Shown one piece after another: positions 6,368 through 55,908 of a DNA stretch of 64,000 bases. The translations under genes were made by a program, and so were the position numbers. Below the pieces are notes generated by a model, which saw only the letters and a list, made by a program, of their open reading frames with translations, was not told where the DNA came from and made no database searches. This stretch comes from Bacteroidales bacterium (GTDB lineage: Bacteria > Bacteroidota > Bacteroidia > Bacteroidales > P3): positions 14,353 to 78,352 of the forward strand of contig JAFZKV010000019.1 in NCBI GenBank assembly GCA_017551765.1. Direction: 5' to 3'. Position 1 is the stretch's first letter. Each line of letters opens with the position of its first letter.

Positions 6368-6509
6368 GCCGTATCTACTCCGCTGATACTCCGACTGATG
6401 TTCGCATGTTGTCCGTTTGTTGTCCGTTTGTTGTCCGTTTTATAATCGAACAACAAACGGACAACAAGCGGACAATAATGGGACAACAGTGGGCGTTAGG
6501 GCGGCGTTA
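6368..6509. repeat. about 145-bp dispersed element with internal TTGTCCGTTTG hairpin (copy 1)
   Basis: Hairpin arms are 6408-6440 and 6449-6475. 6441-6509 matches the reverse complement of 28768-28838 with about 4 differences, and the homology extends into the flanks. Confidence 0.75.
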
Positions 6510-6660: not shown

Positions 6661-6712
6661 ACCGGCTCCCGACTACCGGCCACCGACTACCGGCTACCGA
6701 CTACCGGCTCCC
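6661..6712. repeat. CCGACTACCGG-type tract
   Basis: ccggctcccgactaccggccaccgactaccggctaccgactaccggctcccgac. The same family recurs at 7801-7830, 13419-13452, 28701-28735, 29027-29062, 32930-33100 and 33715-33762. Confidence 0.8.
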
Positions 6713-7771: not shown

Positions 7772-7841
7772 GGTTTAAGGTTTAACGTTTAAGGTTTAAA
7801 GAAAACCGACTACCGACCACCGACTACCAAAATAAAGAAAT

Positions 7842-13057: not shown

Positions 13058-13158
13058 ATACCCCTCACCGACCACCGCCCCTCTTGATTGCGTTATTGTG
13101 GGATTGTGTCATTGTGTTACTAACGCAATCACGCAATGACGCATTAACGCAATCTTAT

Positions 13159-13469
13159 GTCGTGCACGACCTATCCGTACCACCCCCGCACAAGCACCGT
13201 ATCAACATCGCCCTTTCTCCGACCGCGGTCGGACATCAGTCGGAGTTGACTCGGACTTGAGTCGGACCACAGTCGGAGGGGGTGCGATGGCAATATGACG
13301 TCTAAATGTGCTATTGCGCTCTGATACAGTGGTTGTTAGTGCGTTAAAATTACGCCATTGCCTGTTTTTGTCCGAGAAAAGAGCGTTTTTGGCCCTTCGG
13401 AGGTCTGTCGTCGGCCAATACCGACTACCGCCCACCAGCTACCGACTACCGATTTACATCGTGCACGAC
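13159..13469. repeat. non-coding segment bounded by the 12-bp palindrome GTCGTGCACGAC / ATCGTGCACGAC
   Basis: Palindrome at 13159-13170 and 13458-13469. The interior shares gacatcagtcggag and CCGACTACCG words with 28683-29086. Confidence 0.6.
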
Positions 13470-17340: not shown

Positions 17341-19156
<1,816 letters not shown>

Positions 19157-19164
<8 letters not shown>

Positions 19165-19525
19165 TCTTTGTGTTCAGCAGTTTGTTGGTCTGTTCCTTGG
19201 CCTTGTGGTTGATTTCCGGCGTGAGGTGCTTGCTGACGGTGCGCAGGGCCAGGAAGATGGCCGTCAGGTCGTCGGTGAAGCCCATAGCGGGGATGAAGTC
19301 GGGGATGAGGTCGGCCGGCAGGATGAGGTAGCCCAGCGCACCGATGATGAGGGTCTTGGCCTTTACTGGCACATCCTTCGACTGCAGCAGGTAATAAAGC
19401 TGCAGGGCAGGGTAGAGCACCTTGGCGCCCACCTGTGACGCCACATGCCTCACTTTGCGCCAGAAGCCATCCTCGTTGTAGTGCCGCTCATATTGCGGCG
19501 CTGTTTCAATAGTGAACTTATCCAT
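19157..19525 (-). CDS. YkvA/DUF1232 family membrane protein
   Basis: GALGYLILPADLIPDFIPAMGFTDDL is the DUF1232 signature. Confidence 0.8.
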
Positions 19526-19527
19526 TG

Positions 19528-21780
19528 TTATCCGAGCACTTCCATGATGGCTTTGGCGGCTTTGCGGCCGGCACCCATGGCGAGGATGACTGTAGCGGCA
19601 CCGCTGACGGCGTCGCCGCCGGCGAAGATGTATTTACGGCTGGTCTGTCCGTTCTCGTCGGCCTTGATGCCGCCCCAGGTCTCGCAGTCCAGACCAGGCG
19701 TGCTGGTGCGGATGAGCGGGTTGGGGCTGGTGCCGAGGGCGGCGACCACGGTGTCGGCCTCCACGTCCACCTCGCTGCCTTCGATGGCTTTAAACGAGCG
19801 GCGCCCCTTGGCGTCGGGTTCGCCCATCTCCATCTTCACGCAGCGCAGGGCGCGCACATAGCCGTCCTCGGTGCCGAGCACCTCGACGGGGGCCGTCTGG
19901 AACATGAACTGCACACCCTCTTCCATAGCGTGATGCACCTCCTCGCGGCGGGCGGGCATGTCCTGTTCGCCGCGACGGTAGACTACTGTCACCTCGCTGC
20001 CCAATCGCAGGGCGGTGCGGGCGGCATCCATAGCCACATTGCCGCCACCCACCACGATGACCTTCTTGCCAAGGTAGATGGGGGTGTCGTACTGTTCGTC
20101 GTAACCGTGCATGAGGTTGGTGCGCGTGAGCAGTTCGTTGGCGCTGATAACGCCGATGAGGGTTTCGCCGTTGATGCCCATAAACTTTGGCAGGCCGGCA
20201 CCCGAGGCAATATAGACGGCATCGTATTCCATATCGTTCATCAGCTGGTCGATGGTGATACTCTTGCCGATGATGACGTTGGTGCGTATCTCGACACCCA
20301 GACGGCGCAGGTTGTCAATCTCGGGCTCCACTACTTTCTGCTTGGGCAGGCGGAATTCGGGGATGCCGTAGACCAGCACACCGCCGGCATGGTGCAGCGC
20401 CTCGAAGACGGTTACCTGGTAACCGTGCTTGGCGAGGTCGCCGGCGCAGGTCAGGCCGCTGGGACCGCTGCCCACCACTGCCACCTTGCGGCCTGCAGGG
20501 TAGCATTGGCTCTGCGGCTTGCTGACGGCGCGGTGGTTGTCGGCCACGAAGCGCTCGAGGGCACCGATGGCGATTGGCTCACCCTTGACGCCCATCACGC
20601 AGCTGCCCTCGCACTGCGTCTCCTGCGGGCAGACGCGGCCGCAGACAGCGGGCAACGCCGAGTCGTGACTGATGGTGATATAGGCTTGGTTAAGGTTTTC
20701 CTCCTTGATGTCCTGGATGAAGCGCGGGATGTTGATGCCCACGGGACAAGCCTCCACGCAGCGCGGTTTCTTGCACTGCAGACAGCGGTTGGCTTCCACC
20801 AGCGCCTGGTGCTCGGTGAAGCCAAAACTCACCTCGTCGAAGTTCTTGGCACGTACCTTGGGGTCCTGCTCACGAGGTTTCTGTCGTTTCTTTGTTTCTG
20901 CTATAGCGGCATCCACAGCAGGAGCAAGATTGCAGTTGTGTCCACTCTCGGCGGTGGCGATACGGTAGCGGCGTGCATCGGGGGTCTTCAGCTTGCGGGC
21001 GGCTTCGTCGAAGTCCACAAGATGGCCGTCGAATTCGGGACCGTCGACGCAGCAGAACTTCACCTCGTCGCCCACACGCACGCGGCAGGCACCGCACATG
21101 CCGGTGCCGTCGACCATCATGCAGTTGAGGCTCACGATGGTGGGTAGGTTGTACTTCTTGGTGGTAAGGCTGACGAACTTCATCATCGGCAGCGGTCCGA
21201 TGGCCACGCAGTGGCTGTACTCCACACCCTTGGTGCAGAGTTCATCCACTTTGGCGGTTACCAAGCCCTGTTCGCCATAGGTGCCGTCGTCGGTCATGAT
21301 GTGCAGGTTGTGGCACACGGCACGCAGCTCGTCTTCATAGAAGAGCAGGTCCTTCGAGCGGGCACCGATGATGACGTCGGTGGGGATACCGTTGCGGAAG
21401 GCCCACTTTACCTGCGGAAACACCGGCGCGATGCCCACGCCGCCAGCCACGAACAGCAGACGCTTCAACTCACCCTTGGCGTGTTTTTCTATCAGTTCGC
21501 TTGGCCGTCCCAGAGGTCCCACGATGGTGTAGAGGTCGTCGCCGACGTTCATCTCTGCCAGCTGGCGTGTGGTGTCTCCCACCACTTGGAACACCAGCAC
21601 TATAGACTGCCGCTGGTACACAATATCGCTAATCGTCAATGGGATGCGCTCACCGTTGGGGTGGGGTATAACGATGACGAATTGGCCTGGTTTGCCGCTG
21701 AGCGAAATCCACGGCGCGTGGACTTCCATCTGGTAAATCTCGTGGCTGTTAAGCAGCCGCTTGCTGATGATCTCGTACAT
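19528..21780 (-). CDS. bifunctional PyrK-like FAD/NAD-binding subunit / NADPH-dependent glutamate synthase small-chain-like oxidoreductase
   Basis: 750 aa. N-terminal ferredoxin-reductase-like module. Central Cys clusters (CLQCKKPRCVEACP; CGRVCPQETQCEGSC). Two Rossmann GxGxxG sites (VVGSGPSGL, VVGGGNVAMD). Confidence 0.88.
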   Translation of the reverse strand: MYEIISKRLLNSHEIYQMEVHAPWISLSGKPGQFVIVIPHPNGERIPLTISDIVYQRQSIVLVFQVVGDTTRQLAEMNVGDDLYTIVGPLGRPSELIEKHAKGELKRLLFVAGGVGIAPVFPQVKWAFRNGIPTDVIIGARSKDLLFYEDELRAVCHNLHIMTDDGTYGEQGLVTAKVDELCTKGVEYSHCVAIGPLPMMKFVSLTTKKYNLPTIVSLNCMMVDGTGMCGACRVRVGDEVKFCCVDGPEFDGHLVDFDEAARKLKTPDARRYRIATAESGHNCNLAPAVDAAIAETKKRQKPREQDPKVRAKNFDEVSFGFTEHQALVEANRCLQCKKPRCVEACPVGINIPRFIQDIKEENLNQAYITISHDSALPAVCGRVCPQETQCEGSCVMGVKGEPIAIGALERFVADNHRAVSKPQSQCYPAGRKVAVVGSGPSGLTCAGDLAKHGYQVTVFEALHHAGGVLVYGIPEFRLPKQKVVEPEIDNLRRLGVEIRTNVIIGKSITIDQLMNDMEYDAVYIASGAGLPKFMGINGETLIGVISANELLTRTNLMHGYDEQYDTPIYLGKKVIVVGGGNVAMDAARTALRLGSEVTVVYRRGEQDMPARREEVHHAMEEGVQFMFQTAPVEVLGTEDGYVRALRCVKMEMGEPDAKGRRSFKAIEGSEVDVEADTVVAALGTSPNPLIRTSTPGLDCETWGGIKADENGQTSRKYIFAGGDAVSGAATVILAMGAGRKAAKAIMEVLG

Positions 21781-21783
21781 ATT

Positions 21784-23136
21784 TTATTCTGCGAAATATT
21801 TATAGAACAGGGGGATGGTCTCGATGCCTTTGAAGAACTGTTGCAGGGGGTAGTTCTCGTTGGGGGCGTGGATGTCGTCGCTGGCGAGGCCGAAGCCCAT
21901 CAGGATGCTCTTAAGGCCGAGAATTTTCTCAAAGCCAGCCACGATGGGGATGCTGCCGCCGCTACGGGTGGGGATGGGGCGCTTGCCGAAGGTGTCGGTC
22001 ATGGCCTTCTCGGCGGCCTTGTAGGCTTTGAGCTCCAGCGGGCTGACATAGGCGGCACCGCCGTGGCAGGGAGTCACTTTGACGGTGACATAGTCGGGTG
22101 CCACACTCTCGAAGTATTCCTGGAACAGTTTGCTGATTTTCTCGAAGTCCTGGTTGGCGACCAGACGAGTGCTGATTTTGGCGTAGGCTTTGCTGGGCAG
22201 CACGGTCTTGGTGCCCTCGCCGGTGTGGCCACCCCAGATGCCGCATACATCAAGGCAGGGACGTATGCCCGTGCGCTCTTTGGTGCTGTAGCCCTTCTCG
22301 CCCTTCAGTGCACGTACGCCGAGGTCTTTTTTGTACTGCTCTTCGTCGAAGGGGGCCTGTGCCATGAGGGCGCGCTCCTCGTCGCTGAGCACCAGCACGT
22401 CGTCGTAGAAGCCGGGGATGGTGATGTGACCGTCGGCATCGTGCAGGTCGGCAATCATCTTGCAGAGCACGTTGATGGGGTTGGCTACGGCGCCGCCGAA
22501 GATGCCGCTGTGCAGGTCATGGTTGGCACCGGTCACCTCCACCTCCCAGTAGCAAAGGCCGCGCAGGCCGCTGGTGATGCTGGGCACGTCAGGGGCAATC
22601 ATGGAGGTGTCGGAAACCAGGATGATGTCGGCTTTCAGCAGCTCCTTGTTCTTCTCGCAGAAGCCGTAGAGGCTGCCGCTGCCAATCTCCTCCTCGCCTT
22701 CGAGCATAAACTTGACGTTGCAGGGCAGGTTGCCGGTCTTCACCATGTATTCAAAAGCTTTGGCGTGCATGAAGCTCTGGCCCTTGTCGTCGTCGGCGCC
22801 GCGTGCCCAGATGTATCCGTCCTTGACCACGGGCTCGAAGGGCTGAGTGCGCCACAGTTCCAGCGGAGCCACGGGCATCACGTCGTAGTGGCCATAAACA
22901 AGTACGGTAGGCTTCTTGGGGTCGATGGTTTTCTCACCATAGACGACAGGATTGCCGTCGGTGGGCATCACCTCGGCGCGGTCGGCACCTGCTGCCAGCA
23001 GCAGCTCTTTCCAACGCTCGGCGCAGCGCACCATGTCGGGCTTATGCTCCTGCTCGGAGCTGATGGAGGGAATACGGATTAACGAAAAAAGCTCCTCTAA
23101 GAAGCGGTCCTTGTTTTGTTCGATATACTGTTTCAT
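21784..23136 (-). CDS. M20 family dipeptidase
   Basis: 450 aa. YGHYDVMP, ARGADDDKGQ and EGEEEIGS metal-binding motifs. Confidence 0.85.
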   Translation of the reverse strand: MKQYIEQNKDRFLEELFSLIRIPSISSEQEHKPDMVRCAERWKELLLAAGADRAEVMPTDGNPVVYGEKTIDPKKPTVLVYGHYDVMPVAPLELWRTQPFEPVVKDGYIWARGADDDKGQSFMHAKAFEYMVKTGNLPCNVKFMLEGEEEIGSGSLYGFCEKNKELLKADIILVSDTSMIAPDVPSITSGLRGLCYWEVEVTGANHDLHSGIFGGAVANPINVLCKMIADLHDADGHITIPGFYDDVLVLSDEERALMAQAPFDEEQYKKDLGVRALKGEKGYSTKERTGIRPCLDVCGIWGGHTGEGTKTVLPSKAYAKISTRLVANQDFEKISKLFQEYFESVAPDYVTVKVTPCHGGAAYVSPLELKAYKAAEKAMTDTFGKRPIPTRSGGSIPIVAGFEKILGLKSILMGFGLASDDIHAPNENYPLQQFFKGIETIPLFYKYFAE

Positions 23137-25898: not shown

Positions 25899-25934
25899 TC
25901 TTCTTTAGTTAATTGTAACATCAAAACATGGTTA

Positions 25935-26024
25935 GCTTTAAGTTTTAAGCTTTAAGTTTTAAGTTGCTTGCGCAGGCGGCGTCAGCCCACTTAAAACTTA
26001 AAACTTAAAACTCACAGCTTAAAC
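25935..26024. repeat. long intercistronic hairpin (AAGTTTTAAG word family)
   Basis: Arms are 25935-25964 and 25989-26024. The loop again contains gcgtcagc. Confidence 0.7.
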
Positions 26025-26025
26025 T

Positions 26026-26412
26026 TTACTGAGCCTTCTCGCACTTTTTCTCGCAGGGCTTGTCGCATTTCTTCTCGCAAGCCTTCTCACATTTCTTTTC
26101 GCAGGCTTTCTCACCAGCTTTGTCGCACTTGTGCTCGCAAGCTTTCTCGCAGGCCTGGCCTTCAACAGCGGCTTTGGCTTTGCAGCAGTTCTCGGTGCCG
26201 TGGTTGGGGCAAGCCTCGCAGTTGGCGGCTTTGCACTCCTCGCTGCACATGCACTGGTCGGCGCAGCAGGTGGAATCCATAGCGCAGTGGTGCTCACATG
26301 CCTCAACGGCGGCGCACTCTTCGGTGACGGGCTCTTCAGCTTTCTTGTTGTTGCAGGCAACCAGGGCGAATACGGCCACGGCAGCCATAGCGGTAAACAG
26401 AACTTTCTTCAT
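26026..26412 (-). CDS. cysteine-rich lipoprotein (22 Cys in 128 aa, CEKxC repeats)
   Basis: Lipobox ALVAC. The mature part has 21 Cys, and 9 of them lie at i+4 spacing between residues 88 and 124 (CEKACEHKCDKAGEKACEKKCEKACEKKCDKPCEKKCEKA). Confidence 0.6.
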   Translation of the reverse strand: MKKVLFTAMAAVAVFALVACNNKKAEEPVTEECAAVEACEHHCAMDSTCCADQCMCSEECKAANCEACPNHGTENCCKAKAAVEGQACEKACEHKCDKAGEKACEKKCEKACEKKCDKPCEKKCEKAQ

Positions 26413-28682: not shown

Positions 28683-29086
28683 AGGTCGTGCACGATGTAA
28701 ATGGTGGTCGGTAGCCGGTAATCGGTGGTCGGTTTTCGGCCCCGATGCCTACCTATTGACTTCGCTCTAACACCGCCCTAACGCCCACTGTTGTCCCATT
28801 GTTGTCCGCTTGTTGTCCGTTTGTTGTTCGATTGTATAACGGACAACAAACGGACAACAAGCGGACAACAAACGGACATCAGTCGGAGTCATATCGGAGT
28901 TATCTGTGCCTTATACGGCACTTACAACCAACCCATTGTGCGCCAACCACCGCCTTTCCGGTTCGGATATCAGCGCCGTTATAGGTTGCACCGGCGAGGT
29001 TTTCATAGTCGTCTTCGGTTTCGCCCCCGATCACCGGCCCCCGACCACCGGTTACCGACCACCCAAAAATACATCGTGCACGACAT
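28683..29086. mobile_element. MITE-like non-coding element with about 50-bp imperfect terminal inverted repeats
   Basis: The left end aggtcgtgcacgatgtaaatggtggtcggtagccggtaatcggtggtcgg matches the reverse complement of the right end 29027-29086. No ORF inside. It contains copy 2 of the 145-bp hairpin element. Confidence 0.4.
28768..28920. repeat. about 145-bp dispersed element with internal TTGTCCGTTTG hairpin (copy 2, inverted relative to 6368-6509)
   Basis: See 6368-6509. Confidence 0.75.
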
Positions 29087-31786: not shown

Positions 31787-32890
31787 ATGGATAATTTTGT
31801 AGTATCGGCCAGAAAATACCGTCCCGCCACATTCGCCACCGTGGTGGGTCAGGAGCACATCACGCGCACGTTGAAGAACGCCATCCTGACGGGTCAGCTG
31901 CCCCAGGCCTTCCTCTTCTGCGGCAGCCGCGGGGTGGGCAAGACCACCTGCGCCCGCATCCTGGCCAAGACCATCAACTGTGAGCACCGCACGGCCGACG
32001 GCGAGGCCTGCAACGAGTGCGAGAGTTGCCGCTCGTTCAACGAGGGCGCCTCGATGAACATCTTCGAACTCGACGCCGCCAGCAACAACGGCGTGGACAA
32101 CATGCGCGAGCTGACGCAACAGGTCTATATACCGCCGCAGACGGGCAAGTATAAGGTCTACATCATCGACGAGGTGCACATGCTGAGCACCGGCGCTTTC
32201 AACGCTTTCCTCAAGACGCTGGAGGAGCCGCCCGCCTACGCCAAGTTCATCCTCGCCACGACGGAGAAGAACAAGGTGATACCCACCATCCTGAGCCGCT
32301 GCCAGGTGTTTGACTTCAAGCGCATCGAGGTGCCCGATATTGTGCACCATCTCGAGTATGTGGCCGGCAACGAGGGGGTGAAGTACGAGCCCGAGGCGCT
32401 GGAGCTCATAGCCACCAAGGCCGAGGGCGGTATGCGCGACGCCCTGAGCACCTTCGACCAGCTGGTCAACTTCACGCAGGGTAACCTGACCTATCAGGGC
32501 TGTCTGGAGAACCTCAATGTGCTCGACACCGACTACTACTTCCGTCTGGTGGATCAGCTGCGTGCCGGCGACCTCAGCGGCGCGCTGCTGCTCTATCAGG
32601 AGATTACTACGCGTGGCTTCGGCGGCCAGCATTTTCTCACCGGCCTCTGCGAGCACCTGCGCAACCTGATGGTCAGCCTCGACCCGCAGACGCTCACGCT
32701 GGTGGAGGGCGGCGAGAAGCTGCGCGCCCGCTATGGCCAGCAGGCCCAGCAATGCGGGCTGCCGCTGCTGCTCAACTACCTGGGTACCGCGGGCGATTAC
32801 GAGTACCGCTTCCGCGAGGCCAACAACAAGCGCCTCTTTGTGGAGATAGGCCTGATGAAAATGGCCTCCGCCACGATGCAGGTGGGTTAG
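31787..32890 (+). CDS. dnaX: DNA polymerase III subunit gamma/tau, N-terminal (gamma-like) reading frame ending at an in-frame TAG
   Basis: Walker A GSRGVGKTT, Zn module CNECESC, DEVHML and the SRC motif (ILSRCQVF). Stop TAG at 32888-32890. Confidence 0.88.
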   Translation: MDNFVVSARKYRPATFATVVGQEHITRTLKNAILTGQLPQAFLFCGSRGVGKTTCARILAKTINCEHRTADGEACNECESCRSFNEGASMNIFELDAASNNGVDNMRELTQQVYIPPQTGKYKVYIIDEVHMLSTGAFNAFLKTLEEPPAYAKFILATTEKNKVIPTILSRCQVFDFKRIEVPDIVHHLEYVAGNEGVKYEPEALELIATKAEGGMRDALSTFDQLVNFTQGNLTYQGCLENLNVLDTDYYFRLVDQLRAGDLSGALLLYQEITTRGFGGQHFLTGLCEHLRNLMVSLDPQTLTLVEGGEKLRARYGQQAQQCGLPLLLNYLGTAGDYEYRFREANNKRLFVEIGLMKMASATMQVG

Positions 32891-32929
32891 ATAGCAAGAC
32901 GCCCCGCAAGGGCAGGCACGGATAAAGAG

Positions 32930-33025
32930 TCGCCGGTAGCCGGTAGTCAGTCGCCGGTAGCCGGTAGTCAGTTGCCGGTAGCCGGTAGTCAGTTGCCGGT
33001 AGCTGGTAGTCAGTCGCCGGTAGTG
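32930..33025. repeat. 21-bp tandem repeat, 4.5 copies, in the dnaX frame
   Basis: The unit tcgccggtagccggtagtcag is read as (S/L)PVAGSQ. It is followed at 33026-33100 by the complementary CCGACTACCG word family. Confidence 0.85.
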
Positions 33026-33525
33026 CCACCGACTACCGACCACCAACCCCCGACCCCCGACCACCGACTACTGACTACCGACCCCCGACCCCCGACCACC
33101 TTCCTCTCAGGTTCGCTGAGCATCGGCTCGGTCAAGCCGGTGCAGGTGGAAACACCGAAGGTGCAGGCCGAGGTGAAGCCCTTGACGCAGGAGGACCTGG
33201 AGCGCTATTGGCGCGAAGTGGGCGAGGAGTTGAACCTGGCGGCGTTGCTGTCCAAGGCCACCGTGCGCCTCGGAGAACAGCCCGGTCGCATCGAGATTGA
33301 CGCGCAGACGACCTACTTCCACGACGACTTCAAGCCCCACAAGATCGATGTCGTCGAGCGGCTGCGCAAGAAGAGTTCCATGCCGATGCTCGACGCCAAG
33401 GTGAACCCCAAGTTTGTGGAGAGCGAAGAGGTGATTTATTCGCCCAATGACAAATACAATGCGATGCTGAAAATCAACCCCAAGTTGATTGAACTGCGCA
33501 AACTGTTCCCTTCAATTGATTACTG

Positions 33526-33526
<1 letters not shown>
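32972..33526 (+). CDS. dnaX: DnaX (tau) C-terminal domain ORF, same frame as 31787-32890
   Basis: The frame is open from 32891. The first start-like codon is TTG 32972, inside the repeat. The C-terminal ...YFHDDFKPHKIDVVERLRKK...KINPKLIELRKLF is consistent with a DnaX tail. An independent start is doubtful. Confidence 0.55.
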
Positions 33527-37414
<3,888 letters not shown>

Positions 37415-49357: not shown

Positions 49358-49437
49358 AAAAAGTAAAATCTAAAAACTAAAAAGGCTGTCTCTATTTTTG
49401 CGGCAGCCTTTTAGTTTTTAGCTTTTAGTTTTTACTT
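49358..49437 (+). terminator. 80-nt long hairpin (TAAAAACTAAAA word family) after serA
   Basis: Arms 49358-49388 and 49404-49437 with an inner GC stem aaggctg/cagcctt and T-rich 3' side. Confidence 0.65.
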
Positions 49438-55574: not shown

Positions 55575-55800
55575 TCCGACATTTCAACGGTTGTTGAACG
55601 GTAGTTTAACGGTATTTCAACGGAAAAAAGCGTTGAACTACCGTTGAACTGCCATTCTTCGCCCGTTGTTCGGCCGTTCTTTGGTCGTTCTTTGCTTTTT
55701 TCCAAAGAACGACCAAAGAACGGCCTTTCAACAACCGTACAACGGCAGTTCTTCAACAGTTCTTCAAGAAAATGTTGAAGAACTGTTGAAGAACTGCTGA
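55575..55800. repeat. composite hairpin repeat (same family as 42247-42382 and 44340-44505)
   Basis: The modules tatttcaacggaaaaaagcgttgaa, gccgttctttggtcgttctttgc...gaacgaccaaagaacgg and cagttcttcaa...ttgaagaactg appear in permuted order. Confidence 0.85.
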
Positions 55801-55908
55801 AGATTTGTTGTCGAACAGGCGGACTCAGGGCGGCAGTGACGAAATGTTGGGGCGGCTGTGCAATAAACGGGCCGTTGAGACGTTATTGGTGTATTAATAA
55901 GGTATAAT

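Follow-up and report, generated by a model that had tools for sequence, protein, structure and literature searches.

A conserved in-frame UAG and a short 3' RNA element at the gamma/tau boundary of dnaX in gut and rumen Bacteroidales suggest programmed stop-codon readthrough

The gene dnaX, which encodes DNA polymerase III subunit gamma/tau, is a classic example of a single gene that yields two proteins through recoding. In the window analysed here, a 64,000-nucleotide (nt) stretch of contig JAFZKV010000019.1 from a Bacteroidales bacterium, dnaX is interrupted at the gamma/tau boundary by a single in-frame TAG (32888-32890, plus strand). This raises the question of whether the stop is an error, a sign of decay, a border between two genes or a site of recoding. 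The source and the sampled relatives are gut or rumen Bacteroidales, and their sequences suggest that a conserved UAG together with an RNA signal most likely allows a fraction of ribosomes to pass the stop and make the long tau subunit. What is conserved as signal is a short element directly behind the stop (32891-32921), which was overlooked by an earlier note on this DNA made from the sequence alone.

The dnaX open reading frame (ORF) runs from ATG 31787 to the TAG and comprises 367 codons. This N-terminal part (31787-32887, plus strand) covers clamp-loader domains I-III and would be the gamma-like product if translation terminates at the TAG. It contains the AAA+ domains expected of a DnaX protein, with Walker A (GSRGVGKTT), a four-Cys Zn module and the SRC motif (LSRCQ). 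It matched DNA_pol3_delta2, DNAX_ATPase_lid and DNA_pol3_gamma3 in Pfam and positions 1-363 of 614 of NCBIfam model NF011531 (E=1e-193). Past the TAG the same frame stays open for 211 codons until a TGA at 33524-33526. The earliest ATG, GTG or TTG in this continuation is TTG 32972 (codon 27) and the earliest ATG is codon 163. The last ~140 of the 211 residues matched NF011531 positions 458-609 of 614 (E=1.2e-8), and the two parts of the gene thus correspond to collinear halves of one DnaX model. The domain was also detected, in frame 0 in the clade of the window, by a hidden Markov model (HMM) made from the C-terminal 150 residues of full-length Bacteroidota DnaX proteins. A Pfam search of the C-terminal part gave no match. 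Its AlphaFold2 model had a predicted local distance difference test score (pLDDT) of 70, with a core at pLDDT 85-90. Foldseek found no match to this model at E<=0.001; the top matches were weak, to DciA (8a3v_C, E=0.034) and DnaA domain I (4tps_D), and E. coli tau in 5fku_E was also matched weakly (E=0.14, template modelling score 0.35-0.42). Taken with the coding constraint described below, the NF011531 and HMM matches indicate that the frame past the TAG encodes a Bacteroidota-type tau C-terminal domain (33101-33523, plus strand). The earlier note had called the continuation plausibly just such a domain, and its description of the clamp-loader core ending at the TAG after 367 codons, of the frame free of stops until 33526 and of TTG 32972 as the sole early start-like codon, with ATG only deep in the domain, is confirmed in coordinates and motifs.

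We compared the locus with DNA of 16 related loci whose N-terminal parts are 71-94% identical to that of the window at the protein level. These include a closest-species set with one genome per species (L001, 83%; L002, 75%; L003, 71%) and 12 further cluster representatives (L161, L163, L166-L175). A TAG is present at the boundary of domain III and the linker in 16/16 of these relatives, and TAA or TGA in none. In the three closest species it stands at codon 367/368 with the C-terminal domain in the same frame, and the 12 cluster representatives all carry it (12/12). The 16 loci come from independent assemblies of different studies, N-part synonymous divergence (dS) ranges from 0.55 to about 2 in the ten pairs computed, and the codon 5' of the TAG varies (GGT, CAG, GGA, GTT, TAT, ACA, CCA, CAA, CAT, AGT, TTA). 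The pattern extends to protein clusters: 86 of the best 120 matches to the N-terminal part stop here, with lengths of 353-404 residues and 78-94% identity, and a poly-Lys tail was found at the C-terminus of none of the 86. The other 34 of the 120, which are full-length proteins, are more distant. A profile of the C-terminal part retrieved 80 clusters, each of them called as a separate ORF (98-241 residues) and left unnamed or annotated as hypothetical protein, and no fusion of the two parts was found among close relatives (86 N-part and 80 C-part clusters). Among the matches listed in a metagenome scan with the N-terminal part there were only relatives of <=64% identity. Two frame-0 matches outside the clade (L129 and L146) were set aside, as additional stops or frameshifts in both suggest poor assembly.

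The region behind the stop behaves as coding sequence. In the window and in the 11 relatives with sequence that is long enough and unbroken, frame 0 has no stop between the TAG and the tau C-terminus, a stretch of 179-254 codons. The linkers between the TAG and the conserved C-terminal domain, 2484 nt in total, contain 0 stops in frame 0 versus 25 and 15 in the other two frames. The part of the linkers that lies 5' of the first ATG, GTG or TTG, a start located 18-65 codons downstream, is likewise without a frame-0 stop. The C-terminal domain has a ratio of nonsynonymous to synonymous divergence (dN/dS) of 0.17-0.26, with dS near or above 1, and is under purifying selection. An in-frame stop, a downstream ORF in the same frame and coding constraint on that ORF, which are looked for in readthrough genes, thus occur together, and this pattern indicates that the region past the TAG is translated in frame 0.

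These comparisons bear on the three options that the earlier note had left side by side, namely programmed readthrough, a split or decaying gene, and a base-call error. It had proposed aligning dnaX of relatives at codon 368, and this alignment has a conserved TAG there (16/16) and not a sense codon. A base-call error is contradicted by the same 16 loci and by the 86 protein clusters that imply the stop, and decay by the dN/dS of the C-terminal domain and the stop-free linkers. Clade-wide interruption and downstream purifying selection together rule out a pseudogene or an assembly error as candidates, and the comparison indicates that the TAG interruption is real. Readthrough gains support from the comparative evidence and is still a proposal.

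Directly 3' of the TAG, the window and 16/16 relatives share a 9-nt spacer with consensus ATW-GCW-AGR and peptide I-A-R (ATA GCA AGA in the window, 32891-32899), and both stop identity and 3' context are therefore conserved across species, as is looked for in readthrough. Within these nine bases only the third position of each codon varies, a sign of translation in frame 0. The spacer codons are also rare in this genome: AGA and AGG each account for 4% of Arg codons and GCA for 11% of Ala codons, and ATC makes up 59% of Ile codons yet is never used in the spacer. This locking to rare codons suggests a constraint at the nucleotide level beyond coding, which is what a cis-acting RNA signal would show. 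Each clade locus contains the 12-mer TAGATWGCWAGR a single time, at the junction, and 157 other loci searched lack it; elsewhere in the window the 12-mer has one chance-level match with one mismatch. The possibility that the element is a general cassette was rejected, since it is limited to that single site in every clade locus and is otherwise absent from the window and the loci searched.

One or two bases past the spacer follows a short stem, GCC(C)/(G)GGC, of 3-5 base pairs (bp) with a variable loop of 3-5 nt. In the window the stem is GCCC/GGGC and the loop CGCAA (32901-32913), and a semi-conserved stretch, AGGCACGG, lies immediately 3' of it (32914-32921; alignment columns 39-46, partly invariant). 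The stem cells are paired in 100% of the 13 sequences, and two stem pairs show compensatory changes, one from G-C to C-G and the other from C-G to G-C or U-A. The covariation score was reached in 0/500 shuffles and collapsed in slid controls, and RNAalifold recovered the same stem independently. Length variants of the hairpin differ by exactly 3 nt, which preserves the reading frame. Covariation thus supports a downstream RNA structure, a further feature looked for in readthrough, with a putative role as stimulator. Searching the window with Rfam gave nothing at gathering score except one tRNA-Met, and neither a recoding element nor a selenocysteine insertion sequence (SECIS); at permissive E-values it gave only generic miRNA-hairpin matches to the repeat tract described below. 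Two other functions were considered for the conserved bases and rejected: a Bacteroides-type promoter (TAnnTTTG) at TAGATTGC is a poor match by eye and its ATA variant a worse one, and the element contains no GGAGG for anti-Shine-Dalgarno pairing.

A more conspicuous structure lies further downstream, in the linker of the window (32928-33100, plus strand). Tandem Repeats Finder delimited a 21-bp unit in 4.6 copies (32928-33023, 96% matches), followed by a tract of a CCACCGA-type 7-mer family (33026-33100). The earlier note had described this repeat and the complementary word family behind it, and both hold up. The long stem-loop it had drawn from them is real, as the 240-nt fold has a minimum free energy of -91.5 kcal/mol versus -80.2 for shuffles (z = -2.4), and imperfect, as the arms (32934-32996 and 33025-33087) are 71% complementary over 63 nt. 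The stimulatory role that was implied for it did not stand: the tract begins 38 nt past the stop, too far from it, and is absent from every relative, the relatives having P/A/Q-rich linkers instead. Within the tract only frame 0 is without stops. We also observed a dozen or more long imperfect hairpins across the window that consist of tandem units of 7, 8 or 11 nt with the reverse-complement units directly behind them (6377-6507, 13086-13154, 25931-26028, 28759-28902, 49358-49433, 55580-55832 and others), most of them outside long ORFs. Another tandem heptamer palindrome, AGGTGAA/TTTCACT (17572-17662), lies inside a long minus-strand ORF (17341-19164), a putative gene. Such tandem-repeat palindromes look like a genome-wide class. 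The dnaX repeat tract is a member of this dispersed hairpin family, which the earlier note had not recognised, and a passenger in a tolerant linker, not a recoding signal.

The neighbouring genes are tightly packed. The TGA that ends the readthrough frame of dnaX (33524-33526, plus strand) overlaps the ATG of dapF at 33526 in a TGATG (33524-33528), and dapF (33526-34374) in turn overlaps ligA (34353-34374). The order dnaX N-terminal part, C-terminal part, dapF and ligA recurs in relatives whose loci are long enough to show it. The heptamer family of the palindromes described above (GGTAGTC/CGGTAGC/GACTACC) also forms an in-frame insert of 25 residues in a variable loop of DapF (33679-33761), composed of AGTTGTC and CTACCGG heptamer arrays. 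At this position L163 carries a different insert, and no insert is present in L161 or L168. Further clusters of the heptamer family lie at 6669-6711, 7806-7834 and 13421-13456.

TAG serves as an ordinary stop elsewhere in the window. Among the 35 long ORFs of the window, 6 end in TAG, including dapF just downstream of dnaX, and 29 in TAA or TGA. Genome-wide reassignment of TAG was rejected, as TAG terminates five other long ORFs, dapF among them; a general suppressor would for the same reason be costly. Within the 64-kb window there is no tRNA with a CUA anticodon, the only tRNA being the tRNA-Met, and no pyrrolysine (Pyl) or selenocysteine (Sec) machinery was seen. Selenocysteine insertion was discarded, the stop being UAG and not UGA and a SECIS being absent, and pyrrolysine insertion as well, given the lack of a CUA tRNA or Pyl genes in a check confined to the 64 kb. 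No other TAG-interrupted gene was found in the window among the same-frame segment pairs checked, which were part of the list; these pairs, for example 19516-23079, are antisense to called genes or are adjacent genes.

What usually occupies this position of dnaX became clear from 160 Bacteroidota dnaX loci outside the clade. An A9-A11 run is present at codons 350-386 in 70 of the 119 single-ORF genes. The two-ORF genes mostly carry A8-A10 directly 5' of the frame-0 stop and have the C-terminal domain in the -1 or +1 frame. Slippage-type recoding therefore seems to be the norm of the phylum at the dnaX boundary. The two-ORF poly-A type of this Thermus-like arrangement was described by Antonov et al. 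(2013; PMC3711429) and discussed by Atkins et al. (2016; PMC5009743), and in the literature searched a slippage-type description was found for the two-ORF form only (PMC3711429). In the clade of the window the TAG is preceded by neither an A-run nor an X XXY YYZ motif, and frame 0 encodes the C-terminal part in the window and in those relatives whose sequence is complete. The comparison indicates that this clade has replaced the A8-A11 run by a UAG cassette at the same place. Gamma/tau recoding is usual at this position, and we take this as strong circumstantial support for a cassette that serves the same purpose. Two other Bacteroidales loci have the tau C-terminal domain in the +1 frame without an A-run (L006, 5129-5152; L085, 1246-1260) and share 'N AGG CAA TC' a few codons 5' of the frame-0 stop; here a +1 frameshift may take place at the rare AGG codon.

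We consider it likely that programmed readthrough of the UAG gives tau and that termination gives gamma. Most ribosomes would terminate at UAG 32888-32890 through release factor 1 (RF1) and produce a gamma-like clamp-loader subunit of 367 residues. Some would decode the UAG as sense, probably with a near-cognate tRNA such as one for Gln, Tyr, Lys or Trp, and continue in frame through I-A-R, the low-complexity linker and the C-terminal domain. The resulting tau-like protein of about 579 residues could link the polymerase with the clamp loader. The signal 3' of the stop would comprise an A at +4, the spacer AUW GCW AGR and the small G+C hairpin starting 10-11 nt downstream, which may keep the spacer single-stranded or bind a factor. 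An A at +4 is reported to favour amber suppression and weak termination in E. coli. Bases A at +4/+5 contact 16S rRNA (Rodnina, 2019; PMC7026636). Even modest readthrough could suffice, as cells would need few replisomes. We infer the occurrence of readthrough from the conserved context, and its efficiency, the inserted amino acid and the way in which the element acts are proposed on the same basis.

Several points weigh against this proposal. Bacterial ribosomes usually read through UAG inefficiently, and an essential role is expected of tau. The short hairpin has little thermodynamic stability (-4 to -8 kcal/mol; fold z-scores near 0) and starts about 10 nt 3' of the stop, further away than typical mechanical stimulators. 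Its compensatory changes come from two lineages (L002 and L003 together, and L001), and the 16 loci are related, so that the counts overstate their independence. The tau fusion protein itself is deduced from comparative evidence. Finally, the ATT or ATA past the stop is a weak non-canonical start, so that reinitiation is compatible with the sequence.

Such reinitiation is the core of the main alternative, which we regard as unlikely: a split gene in which translation terminates at the UAG and restarts at the adjacent AUU/AUA or an internal start, giving a free C-terminal protein that would work without a covalent link to the clamp loader. It would explain why the stop is invariably followed by an ATT or ATA codon, each a near-cognate start, why coding constraint begins right at that codon and why gene callers give two ORFs. 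It would leave the strict requirement for TAG unexplained, and ATG, GTG or TTG is found at this codon in 0/16 lineages, though one mutation away. In addition, all other Bacteroidota sampled have the C-terminal domain fused, directly or by way of slippage, and a free polymerase-binding domain would compete with the established tethering function of tau. A combination of strict UAG conservation, a positioned hairpin, conserved 3' flanks and the need for tau in useful amounts could also point to a dedicated factor or amber-reading tRNA that is encoded elsewhere and possibly recruited by the 3' element, as in SECIS or Pyl decoding. The 35-nt element could then be a dedicated recoding element, similar in function to a SECIS or a pyrrolysine insertion sequence (PYLIS), that confines efficient UAG decoding to dnaX, either by recruiting the tRNA or factor or by blocking RF1. 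We hold both the factor and this role of the element to be improbable: the five other long ORFs of the window ending in TAG would make a general suppressor costly, no second copy of the motif was found in the window or elsewhere in the loci searched, and the 64 kb examined contain no tRNA-CUA, no Rfam recoding element and no Pyl or Sec machinery.

Less probable again, and to be given little weight, is translational bypass or a compensating pair of frameshifts across the stop. A stop beside a small hairpin does recall the take-off site of T4 gene 60, but the codon 5' of the stop varies and inspection, which was not a systematic search, revealed no consistent landing codon; moreover, the codons just past the stop show coding-type substitutions, and there is no slippery sequence or A-run. 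We give next to no likelihood to a sequencing error or to a recent loss of function that spared the gamma part alone and made the gene a pseudogene. A lone in-frame stop in one window would be compatible with either, but an identical TAG in 16 independent assemblies is not expected from error, and the constraint on the C-terminal domain (dN/dS 0.17-0.26) and the failure of downstream stops or frameshifts to accumulate speak against decay.

If programmed readthrough is confirmed, stop-codon readthrough would join the list of routes by which dnaX yields two products, and the locus would be a rare case of programmed readthrough in an essential bacterial chromosomal gene, with a compact cis element of about 35 nt. 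If the element proved to be dedicated, uncultured Bacteroidales of gut and rumen would have extended the genetic code for a single gene and would use this to set replisome stoichiometry. There is also a consequence for annotation, as at least 86 N-part clusters are called as truncated DnaX, some of them named 'DNA polymerase III subunit gamma/tau'. Because the stop is in frame, recoding screens based on frameshifts (GeneTack-type) cannot detect this arrangement.

Among known readthrough systems, murine leukaemia virus (MuLV) gag-pol uses UAG with an 8-nt spacer and a pseudoknot, and tobacco mosaic virus (TMV) uses UAG-CAR-YYA, both on eukaryotic ribosomes with eRF1. The dnaX locus resembles these viruses in architecture only, with UAG specifically, a conserved spacer directly 3' of it and a downstream RNA structure. 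In the viruses the long product is a fusion to an enzyme or tether and is made in a fixed proportion, as would be the case here if readthrough occurs. The dnaX locus differs from them in relying on a bacterial ribosome and RF1 and in having a hairpin of 3-5 bp about 10 nt downstream and no pseudoknot. Closer in the ribosome involved is coat/A1 of phage Qbeta, where readthrough by bacterial ribosomes gives an essential minor extended protein; there, however, tRNA-Trp reads a UGA, the gene belongs to a phage, and a conserved structured 3' element is not known.

For dnaX itself, the routes to two products in the literature searched are -1 frameshifting, transcriptional slippage and proteolysis (PMC5009743, PMC3711429), and no report of stop-codon readthrough in dnaX was found in the full-text literature searched. 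Caulobacter crescentus, which makes gamma by proteolysis of tau (PMC5009743), also obtains two DnaX forms without a frameshift, but its route is post-translational and its gene uninterrupted. In Thermus thermophilus, with transcriptional slippage, and in the two-ORF poly-A dnaX type (PMC3711429), which with its A8-A11 runs is the arrangement of most other Bacteroidota sampled, tau of the two-ORF form also needs recoding; the clade of the window differs in having no homopolymer run and in having the C-terminal part in frame 0 behind a UAG. The -1 frameshift in E. coli dnaX, with its slippery A AAA AAG, Shine-Dalgarno-like element and 3' stem-loop, lies in the same gene and at the same boundary of domains III and IV, and likewise gives two products with a common N-terminus through a cis signal with a downstream stem-loop. 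Unlike in E. coli, the window locus has neither a slippery heptamer nor a change of frame, and the logic is inverted: standard decoding gives tau and the shift gives gamma in E. coli (PMC5009743), whereas here standard decoding would give the short product and recoding tau. The gene, the outcome and the class of recoding are thus each known, and what is new is their combination with a conserved bacterial signal.

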